A stretch of DNA of 4,533 nucleotides from a virus (Duplodnaviria; Heunggongvirae; Uroviricota; Caudoviricetes): IMG/VR virus record IMGVR_UViG_2711768021_000006; one strand, written 5' to 3'. Below, in pieces: positions 2,747 to 4,533 of this stretch. Made by a program: the position numbers and the translations under genes. Numbering within the stretch: position 1 is the stretch's first letter; each line of letters starts with the position of its first letter. Under the pieces are notes generated by a model. The model saw nothing but the letters and a program-made list of their open reading frames with translations, searched no databases and was not told where the DNA came from.

Positions 2747-3169
2747 TCACAGTATCGCCTCCTGAAAATTACCCTGATAGAAAGCCAGTACACGCTGCAT
2801 AGCTTCGCTCTTCCGGCACTCGCGACAGATTATATTCAGGCGCCTGTCGTAGCGGCGTATTTCTCCGTCAGGTAATGACCAGATAAGGTCCGGATCAACA
2901 ACAACCGGTTTCCTCACCTTTACTCTCGAGAGTTTTTTGCGGGCGCTTTGCCAGTCCTTGCGAGCCTGTTCAGACGGGAATAAGCCGTAGCCAGAATTAT
3001 ATACATCACCACTTGCGACCAGTTCTATGCATAAGCGACCGACAGACGCACGACTGATACCTGTTTCATCTGACAACTGCCGAATCGTGACCCGACCGTC
3101 CTGATGCACGAGTTCCACAATTCGCGTCTTCAGTTCTTCCCGCTGTTCGGGAGTAAAAGGTTTCGCCAT
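2747..3169 (-). CDS. Winged-helix/HTH DNA-binding protein, 140 aa
   Basis: ATG at 3167-3169 with strong AGGAGGA Shine-Dalgarno. N-terminal segment VTIRQLSDETGISRASVGRLCIELVASGDV looks like an HTH recognition helix. Tightly packed after the DnaC-like stop (14-nt intergenic). Confidence 0.65.
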   Translation of the reverse strand: MAKPFTPEQREELKTRIVELVHQDGRVTIRQLSDETGISRASVGRLCIELVASGDVYNSGYGLFPSEQARKDWQSARKKLSRVKVRKPVVVDPDLIWSLPDGEIRRYDRRLNIICRECRKSEAMQRVLAFYQGNFQEAIL

Positions 3170-3183
3170 AAATCCTCCTGAAA

Positions 3184-3745
3184 CTACTTAACAACCCTCG
3201 AATGGCTAACATTCGGACGCCAGCTCTCCCAGTTAAAATTCACCCAGCGCCCGCCGTTCATNNNNNNNNNNNNNNNNNNNNNNNNNNNNNNNNNNNNNNN
3301 NNNNNNNNNNNNNNNNNNNNNNNNNNNNNNNNNNNNNNNNNNNNNNNNNNNNNNNNNNNNNNNNNNNNNNNNNNNNNNNNNNGATAGCTGCCGCTAAGTG
3401 ATTCTTCCCGGTACCAGGTTTTCCGCTGAACGCAAAATTTGTACACCCGGTCATCAGTTCATCGGCGATGGATTTCGCCTGGCTTAACGCGTATCGCTGG
3501 CCGTCGTTCTGCACCTGGTAATTCGCAAACGAGCATTTACGGTGCAACGGCTGGATGCCTGAGCGATTCAGAATTTTTTCCACCCGCAACTGGCGATTCA
3601 GGCGGTTGATCTCCTCGCTACGTTTCTGGCCTTCAGCAAGTTGCCACTCGCGCCACTCCGCTACCGTTCTGAATGGGGCGGTTACATGTGGCGGGGTCAG
3701 TCGGCGGATGCGTTCCAGAACGCCGCCTGTCGCAATATTTTTCAT
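3184..3745 (-). CDS. DnaC-like replicative helicase loader (prophage paralogue), interrupted by assembly gap 3262-3382
   Basis: N-terminal 121 aa (MKNIATGGVLERIRRL...NRSGIQPLHRKCSFANYQ...FSGKPGTGKNHLAAAI) aligns by eye with E. coli DnaC, including the Walker A motif. After the N-run, a different frame (codons from 3261 down to stop TAG at 3184-3186) gives GGRWVNFNWESWRPNVSHSRVVK, matching the DnaC C-terminus (..LWVIFNWDSYRSRVTGKEY). About 100 residues are unaccounted for, so the 121-nt N-run under-represents the true sequence. Confidence 0.8.
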
Positions 3746-4100
3746 GGTCCGTTACCCCCTGAAGCCTGGCGGGATCGCACTGTCCGGCAACGAGACGGTG
3801 TTAACCTGTCGGAGCAACGTCTCAGGCCGAACACCTTTCGGCGCGAACAGGCCCTGGTATTCATTGGCGATGCTGTGTCGAATCACCTGCTCAGGTGTAA
3901 AACCCTGCTGACGGAATTTTTCCAGTTCCCGTATCGCCCCGTTAGCGCCCTGCTCCGTTCGAATCGGTTTTCGCAATGCCTGTCTGAACCGGACCCACTC
4001 ATGCCAGAGTGTTTCCGGCAACCAATCGGGCAGCTCAATAGCCTCCGGCTCGAATTTTTTAGACGCTCGTTTTTGGCGAGGGGGAGATCAGTATTTAGAT

Positions 4101-4120
4101 CTTCCTCTTCCTCTTCCTCT
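4101..4120. repeat. Tandem hexanucleotide repeat (CTTCCT)x3.3, encoding (Glu)6 on the minus strand
   Basis: cttcctcttcctcttcctct read directly. Falls in the linker frame of the initiator gene. Confidence 0.6.
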
Positions 4121-4230
4121 GGTAACGCTTTTTGATCCGTTTGTGTAACGCTGGCAGCGTTACCTTTTCGTTTCAGTTCGCGTATTTTTGTTACTCGCTC
4201 GTTTGTAACCGCCCGTTTTTTTTAGAGCTT
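4119..4230. repeat. Iteron-like cluster of GTAAC/GTTAC motifs with dyad symmetry plus T-rich tracts; candidate replication origin inside the initiator gene
   Basis: GTAAC at 4122, 4145 and 4205; GTTAC at 4159 and 4190. Perfect inverted repeat GTAACGCTG-g-CAGCGTTAC at 4145-4163. T-rich runs at 4129-4133, 4165-4173, 4185-4189 and 4216-4223. A related dyad GTAACGC-cgcga-GCGTTAC lies at 4354-4372. Confidence 0.45.
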
Positions 4231-4428
4231 TTTCCGTTATGACGTTCAAAGTTAGGTAGAGAAAGCCCTCCGTCATTTTCGACCAGCCATCCAACCTGAA
4301 TTAACGCATCAGCAAAACCAGACATAAAAGTGATGCGATCTATTGCACTTTTTGTAACGCCGCGAGCGTTACAATCTGCATTACCGTCTATCATTTGTTG
4401 ATCCGCCCATGCCCAGAAGCGAATAACC

Positions 4429-4533
4429 TGAGGTAGCCTGAGTTTAACGGACACTCCTTCCTGAAATAGAATGGCATCAGAAGGAGCTAATAATGAGCAG
4501 AAAAACCCAACGTTACTCTAAAGAGTTCAAAGC
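4429..4533 (+). mobile_element. Left end of an IS3-family insertion sequence (IS600-like), running off the window
   Basis: Sequence from 4429 begins TGAGGTAGCCTGAG..., and IS3-family ends typically start TGA. The orfA start follows about 64 nt later. The N-terminal peptide MSRKTQRYSKEFK matches my recollection of IS600 OrfA. The right end is not in the window, so the boundary is approximate. Confidence 0.55.
4493..4533 (+). CDS. IS3-family transposase OrfA (IS600-like), 5' partial at window edge
   Basis: AGGAG at 4481-4485 followed by ATG at 4493. Translation MSRKTQRYSKEFK... continues beyond the window. Confidence 0.55.
   Translation, partial: MSRKTQRYSKEFK

Follow-up and report, generated by a model that had tools for sequence, protein, structure and literature searches.

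The initiator gene at the right of the window (the whole 4,533-nt stretch of DNA that was analysed) is, we hold with high confidence, dead: a ydaU-family gene that belongs to a Rac-like cryptic prophage of Shigella sonnei and has acquired three independent, heritable lesions by stepwise decay. What remains here is the 3′ 86% of the gene, on the minus strand at 3752-4428, running from nucleotide (nt) 105 of the intact 789-nt form to a TAA stop at 3752-3754. A functional member of the family has an intact open reading frame (ORF); this copy carries IS600 at nt 107, a frameshift at a tract of eight A residues (A8) and a 10-bp deletion. Any one of these lesions would be expected to abolish the initiator and so leave the prophage unable to replicate from its own origin, a loss of function that is read from the sequence. 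That the lesions exist, what each consists of, and that they recur in many independent assemblies is directly demonstrated.

Evidence for the identity of the gene came firstly from comparison with E. coli. DNA identity is 97-98% to intact genes in 681 complete E. coli genomes, and one such gene, from E. coli COL60J, bears the annotation 'phage replication initiator YdaU family protein' and has ydaV after it. The likeness to the Rac-like YdaU/YdaV pair of E. coli extends to gene order (cro-like, ydaT, ydaU, ydaV, DUF977): ydaV starts 6 nt past the ydaU stop, and in the S. sonnei loci (L004-L011), as in those of E. coli, a Cro-like gene and ydaT lie upstream. Judged on these grounds, the gene is the ydaU-family replication initiator of a Rac-like lambdoid cryptic prophage of S. 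sonnei, now a pseudogene. An intact 262-aa orthologue matches PHROG 2509, 'replication initiation protein', over its full length (residues 1-262, E = 1.2e-89) and has a weak second PHROG match to 'replication initiation O-like' phrog_678 (E = 7e-26).

The preliminary description had named the product a DnaT-domain initiator. Pfam returned no family for the intact 262-aa orthologue or for either remnant ORF, even at E <= 10, and we therefore tested the proposed domain against PDB sequences and NCBIfam. Residues 170-262 resemble the C-terminal domain of DnaT (PDB 2RU8, E = 9.5e-5; 9ZBT, E = 3.2e-4), and the C-terminal tail is near-identical to that of DnaT (VNTVSxPDSxIPPGFRG). By contrast, the N-terminal two thirds are unrelated to DnaT, and the NCBIfam DnaT equivalog NF002770 scored only 16.2 and 17.5 bits against a 201-bit cutoff, over nothing but the last 19 residues. 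The name is thus acceptable at the level of the domain only, and we regard the protein as a phage initiator with a DnaT-like domain rather than as DnaT. The intact protein is laid out as an N-terminal domain, an acidic repeat-rich linker and the DnaT-like C-terminal domain.

The N-terminal domain also separates this initiator from another YdaU type. A 285-aa YdaU homologue, found in L009 and taken by us to be the K-12 Rac type, matches DUF1376 (PF07120) at 2.7e-26, whereas the 262-aa orthologue has no match to that family. The C-terminal 124 aa of the 262-aa initiator are 81% identical to the 285-aa homologue; the N-terminal ~135 aa are unrelated to the DUF1376-containing protein, are without a Pfam family, and presumably constitute an origin-specific domain. 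A further difference is that the gene in the window is a pseudogene with three lesions. Among better-known systems a parallel in organization is the O/P module of phage lambda, in which a two-domain initiator is likewise followed by a helicase-loader gene. The resemblance does not extend to lambda P: the loader here is DnaC/IstB-like, and it is the C-terminal domain of the initiator that is DnaT-like.

The reading of the gene in three successive frames, put forward from the sequence alone, is borne out by comparison with an intact orthologue. A tblastn search of the window with the intact 262-aa E. coli protein (L001:3898-4686) split the match among three minus-strand frames, with aa 33-105 at 4436-4218, aa 104-~151 at 4221 to ~4080 (the reported match extends to 4042, with identity lost past the site of the deletion), and aa 152-262 at 4087-3755. 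With E-values between 1e-63 and 1e-76 these matches lie far beyond chance and, lesions aside, the window frames are 97-100% identical to the orthologue over aa 36-262. The preliminary description had attributed the frame switches to two homopolymers, a T8 run at 4216-4223 and a G5 run at 4080-4084, and proposed that one base added to each would restore a single ORF. The runs lie exactly there, and the arithmetic is correct, each switch being a -1 shift. Alignment to the intact genes of E. coli FDAARGOS_944, E. coli COL60J and phage Rac 442/2, together with the flanks of the IS in L004, nonetheless calls, as we read it, for three corrections: the A tract has gained two bases rather than lost one, the second frameshift is a 10-bp deletion and not a change in the G run, and the 5′ end has been displaced by an insertion that left it in existence. 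Three independent disabling lesions of a prophage initiator were thus rightly recognized, and the T8 run does differ in length; the nature of the lesions assigned to the G5 run and to the 5′ truncation was not as supposed. A more general point for genome scans is that a repair that restores the frame by 'adding one base' can misname real mutations, and that comparison with orthologues is needed.

The first frameshift lies at the A8 tract (T8 on the plus strand; minus-strand gene, 4216-4223). Intact E. coli orthologues have A6 at this point, so that the tract carries a two-base excess and not, as a one-base repair would imply, a one-base deficit. The frameshift halts translation after 113 codons. 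It is shared by all eight S. sonnei assemblies inspected (L004-L011). When a 77-nt probe bearing A9 was matched against complete E. coli genomes, none of the 132 that matched had a tract longer than A6, and the best matches were all A6. The ancestral length in intact E. coli genes is six, yet the one-base repair has a natural counterpart in S. dysenteriae, where an A9 allele encodes a protein of 261 aa that is fully in frame (P0088). Alleles with A7, A8 and A9 all occur in nature, A7 and A9 being found elsewhere than in the window. We infer that expansion from A6 to A8 took place by slipped-strand mispairing within the linker, the region between the two domains that houses the A tract, a hexamer repeat and the 10-bp repeat alike.

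The second lesion is of a different kind. In place of the GATCTCCCCCTAAATCCCCCTCGCC of intact genes the window has GATCTCCCCCTCGCC: missing are 10 bp, TCCCCCTAAA, that in intact genes lie between two 7-bp TCCCCCT direct repeats. The layout in intact genes is GATC-TCCCCCTAAA-TCCCCCT-CGCC and in the window GATC-TCCCCCT-CGCC, with the deletion junction at the single remaining TCCCCCT (AGGGGGA on the plus strand; minus-strand gene, 4079-4085). The C5/G5 run is neither shorter nor longer in the window than in the three intact orthologues. Orthologues with an equal run and an intact frame are precisely what the preliminary description had named as grounds for abandoning its reconstruction at this site; the frameshift as such is real. 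Loss of one unit of the 10-bp direct repeat (TCCCCCTAAA/TCCCCCT), through slippage or a microhomology-mediated deletion, would account for this second shift. As a separate observation, dozens of draft contigs labelled S. sonnei (L015-L018) start at the downstream edge of TCCCCCT or slightly within it, at window positions ~4076-4079, with CTCGCC, TCGCC or CGCC, which suggests a further repeat boundary or an IS insertion at this place in some strains.

The third lesion is the insertion of IS600. Homology to ydaU stops at 4428/4429, and the left end (IRL) of this IS3-family element, on the plus strand at 4429-4533, opens at 4429 with TGAGGTAGCC... and is identical to the first 105 nt of L004:8763-10026; its orfA ATG lies at 4493. 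The element in L004 measures 1264 bp, is 100% identical to one annotated 'IS3-like element IS600', and encodes an orfA of 100 aa (HTH_Tnp_1) and an orfB of 272 aa (rve). Its ends are of the form TG...CA (TGAGGT... / ...ACCTCA), and the two agree at ~20 of their first 30 positions. The sequence upstream of the gene had already been likened to the left end of an IS3-family element, and it can now be named; similarly, the remark that the upstream frame lacks a start of its own holds, the only candidate being a GTG at 4452-4454 (minus strand) that sits inside IS600 and opens an 87-aa fusion ORF (4191-4454).

The 5′ end of the gene had been considered truncated by the IS. The flanks in L004 – ...GAAGGT/IS600/GGTTATT..., as against the uninterrupted GAAGGTTATT of intact genes – instead describe a simple insertion with a 3-bp target-site duplication, GGT (ACC on the plus strand). 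One copy of the duplication lies at 4426-4428 (minus strand) and the other beyond the IS, outside the window. Locating the other side of the IS had been proposed as a check, and in L004 it recovers the missing end: the first 107 nt of ydaU, together with the ATG and the upstream region, are intact on the far side of IS600 in complete S. sonnei genomes, where the 5′ fragment is called as a 41-aa ORF (MASNW...GKVEVYWQ*). The 1264-bp element, lodged at nt 107 (codon 36), lies with the promoter, the start codon and codons 1-35 on one side and the remaining gene on the other.

How the three lesions came together can be followed through a series of alleles, which we found by looking up designed allele products as exact matches and then inspecting the DNA. 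The intact form, with A6, the full repeat and no IS, is that of E. coli (the exact protein is on 74 contigs). The full repeat without IS also occurs with A7 (L024-L028; 113 blocks of the collection) and with A8 (L019, L020). A8 together with the 10-bp deletion, still without IS, is found in L021-L023; its 113-aa product is annotated in S. sonnei 53G and present in 236 blocks. Lastly, A8, the deletion and IS600 at nt 107 are combined, along with one private SNP (GGT>GGA), in the window and in L004-L011. Within S. sonnei the IS600 insertion at nt 107 is polymorphic: the product that requires it is found in 481 blocks, the IS-free A8 product in 236.

Alleles with A9 are also found. Besides the in-frame S. 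dysenteriae gene there is one contig with A9 and the deletion but no IS, and there is a rare allele labelled S. sonnei (L012-L014) that has A9, no IS at nt 107, and an IS600-like end at ~nt 409 after ...GATCAAAAAGCG; the last is a second, separate IS insertion in the same gene. Products expected of IS with A6, of IS with A9 and of IS-free A6 with the deletion were absent from the collection by exact look-up, as was the IS-free, full-length A9 product (3 hexamers), negatives that are weak to the extent that exact matches depend on SNPs and repeat number.

Because the alleles are nested – A8, then A8 with the deletion, then A8 with the deletion and IS600 – they suggest an order in which expansion of the A tract was followed by the 10-bp deletion and then by IS600. 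We infer this order by parsimony from a small number of loci. With A6, A7, A8 and A9 all seen, the tract is unstable, and A8 could have more than one origin; recombination between prophages could also have mixed lesions. We considered A9 as the ancestral state, given that the loci free of IS at nt 107 (L012-L014) have A9, and rejected it: A8 is found both with and without the deletion, and one A9 allele already has the deletion. The simplest history is the order given, and in it A9 alleles with other lesions represent later drift from A8.

All three lesions would be standard products of familiar processes, namely slipped-strand mispairing (for the expansion and for the direct-repeat deletion) and IS3-family transposition. 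Their accumulation may reflect neutral decay of a cryptic prophage or a mildly favoured immobilisation of it. In S. sonnei IS600 is among five expanded IS and its expansion is ongoing; IS account directly for half of all pseudogenes, and in another ~12% of interrupted genes an IS occurs together with a different inactivating mutation (PMC7373316). The initiator gene belongs to this class: an IS600 with a 3-bp duplication in a coding sequence, polymorphic, and accompanied by other inactivating mutations. Set against the Shigella pseudogenes produced by expansions of IS1, IS2, IS4, IS600 and IS911 there is no real difference; this is one more case, in a prophage gene. The phenomenon is routine Shigella prophage decay, already known in kind. 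It offers a clean example of stepwise decay – homopolymer expansion, direct-repeat deletion, IS600 – that matters little beyond annotation, although the three lesions could be of use as lineage markers.

Two further features of the gene bear on alternatives to decay. The first is a hexamer repeat, (GAGGAA)3, at 4102-4119 (minus strand), which is in frame and encodes poly-Glu in the intact protein. Copy number ranges from 1 to 7 among the otherwise near-identical loci examined (L004-L028), making this a variable-number tandem repeat in the initiator linker that might serve strain typing; when the literature was searched for earlier use of the hexamer as an S. sonnei MLVA locus, only irrelevant papers came up. 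The second is a perfect 19-bp palindrome, GTAACGC-N5-GCGTTAC, present twice within ydaU, at 4145-4163 and 4354-4372 (number expected in the window, 0.00). A third copy lies at L004:8624-8642. These three are the only copies in the 20 kb of L004, where 0 are expected by chance, and all lie in or just upstream of ydaU. In S. sonnei, IS600 splits the first palindrome from the other two. The iterons of the lambda origin lie inside gene O, and repeated palindromic sites inside an initiator gene, near its repeat-rich linker, make for a second parallel with lambda. The palindromes are candidate initiator-binding sites (origin iterons) or candidate autoregulatory operators.

Among alternatives to decay, the best placed – though we think it very unlikely – is that the poly-A tract and the hexamer form a phase-variable contingency switch of prophage replication, on with A6 or A9 and off with A7 or A8. 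Four tract lengths do exist in nature, each in many assemblies, with A6 and A9 giving full-length in-frame genes and A7 and A8 out-of-frame ones, and the neighbouring (GAGGAA)n varies as widely as described above. Yet tracts of A6-A9 are short for a classical contingency tract, no switching within a strain has been observed, and the out-of-frame alleles are in Shigella-type genomes, which are decaying generally. Moreover, in the lineage of the window the irreversible 10-bp deletion and IS600 follow, a sequel that speaks of relaxed selection rather than of a maintained switch. To a version of this idea that brings in the palindromes we give a similarly slim chance: the A tract, the hexamer and the 10-bp repeat of the linker, set among candidate origin palindromes, would act as a slippage-prone 'fuse' by which replication is time and again turned off (A7/A8) and sometimes back on (A9). 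Were it true, the tract would be a phase-variable control on whether prophages of E. coli and Shigella can replicate, and not a case of simple decay.

Less probable still, to the point of being hardly credible, is that A8 is a programmed slippage site, where slippage in transcription, or a -1 ribosomal frameshift, on A AAA AAA A would yield a functional initiator out of two frames. Runs of 8-9 A provoke RNA-polymerase slippage in enterobacteria, including at Shigella mxiE, and a -1 shift on A8 would read ...SSKKKRAVT..., exactly as in the in-frame A9 protein of S. dysenteriae. A true slippage gene has the slippery run and the two-frame architecture in its functional orthologues; here the intact orthologues in complete E. 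coli genomes have A6 and a single frame, so that the run does not qualify as a conserved signal for recoding. Nor could slippage rescue the gene in the window, where IS600 has cut off start and promoter and a second frameshift lies downstream.

There remains the question of whether the lesions are real, on which the preliminary description had left both answers standing: genuine pseudogenising lesions, or homopolymer sequencing errors in a draft. The exact 87-aa product of the fusion ORF requires both the IS junction and A8, and was used as a retrieval key. It is found on 492 contigs, in the 481 blocks already mentioned. Contigs of 2-5 kb are represented in 397 blocks, as expected of IS-bounded short-read contigs like the window, and contigs of >1 Mb in 14. 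Eight larger loci (L004-L011) were retrieved, six of them from contigs of 4.78-4.86 Mb, and all eight have A8 and a single TCCCCCT. The 715-nt remnant is reproduced base for base in three of the eight; the other five differ only in the GAGGAA count (6 or 7, as against 3). The lesions are thus genuine. That the frameshifts are artefacts of sequencing or assembly, with a real gene intact downstream of the IS, has almost nothing left to recommend it: the window does have N-runs and resemble a short IS-bounded contig, T8 is a type of run miscalled by some platforms, and an IS-bearing A7 variant, seen on 3 contigs of which one belongs to a 4.8-Mb assembly, might stem from long-read error, yet the A8-dependent product recurs throughout these contigs, the eight assemblies agree on A8 and on the deletion base for base, the second lesion involves no change in run length, and the intermediate alleles form a nested series.

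The surroundings of the gene tell of the same decayed prophage. All unmasked stretches of the window are 100% identical by blastn to a segment of L004, a Shigella sonnei-type chromosome, and the window proteins are annotated in S. sonnei genomes, FORC11 and Ss046 for example. The broken initiator gene lies in the replication/early region of the Rac-like lambdoid prophage. Directly downstream of it, on the same (minus) strand as the other genes listed here, is ydaV (3184-3745, coordinates mapped by blastn), encoding a DnaC-like helicase loader; in complete genomes the gene is intact and its 248-aa product has a Pfam IstB_IS21/Bac_DnaA match (L004-L011), whereas in the window it is partly masked by an N-run (3262-3382). 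There follow a gene for a DUF977 protein (2747-3169), a small hypothetical gene, QueH (1499-2185), an N-run (1013-1417) in place of the hok region, a Rem-family gene (453-740) and a truncated DUF1367 gene (61-414) of which 117 of 199 aa are left. The undamaged 89-aa C-terminal ORF of the initiator and the ydaV, DUF977 and QueH genes may have a residual role. In other respects too the prophage at these loci is heavily degraded, with several IS copies, the truncated DUF1367 gene and a frameshifted ydaT in L004. The frameshift in ydaT (L004:8150-8578, outside the window) is a feature of S. sonnei loci, in which a 101-aa ORF is called as against 140 aa in E. coli.

The two N-runs, 1013-1417 (405 nt) and 3262-3382 (121 nt), replace 279 and 306 nt respectively in L004. 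The runs do not keep length, and the listed ORF at 3233-3745 is for that reason an artefact, the real end of ydaV being at ~3184. The first run masks a hok/sok-type toxin region.

IS600 is present at both ends of the window, which is the stretch between two copies. Positions 1-107 are the right end of the second copy, in the same orientation as the first, and it is this copy that truncates the DUF1367 gene. It lacks a target duplication (flanks AAT and GTT in L004), which is indicative of a deletion or rearrangement brought about by the IS. Next to it in L004 come an integrase fragment and modCBA.

Two loci differ in what adjoins the remnant. On the 55-kb contig L009 the same IS600::ydaU remnant is joined to a different Rac-like prophage, the one with the intact 285-aa DUF1376 YdaU. 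We considered this as a second prophage home of the remnant and left it out: there is an N exactly at the IS junction, and the junction is probably a scaffold join, not a real recombinant. Between the IS-free L021 and the IS-bearing L004, the integrase fragment and modABC change sides relative to the prophage segment, a difference that indicates an IS600-associated inversion or rearrangement between strains.
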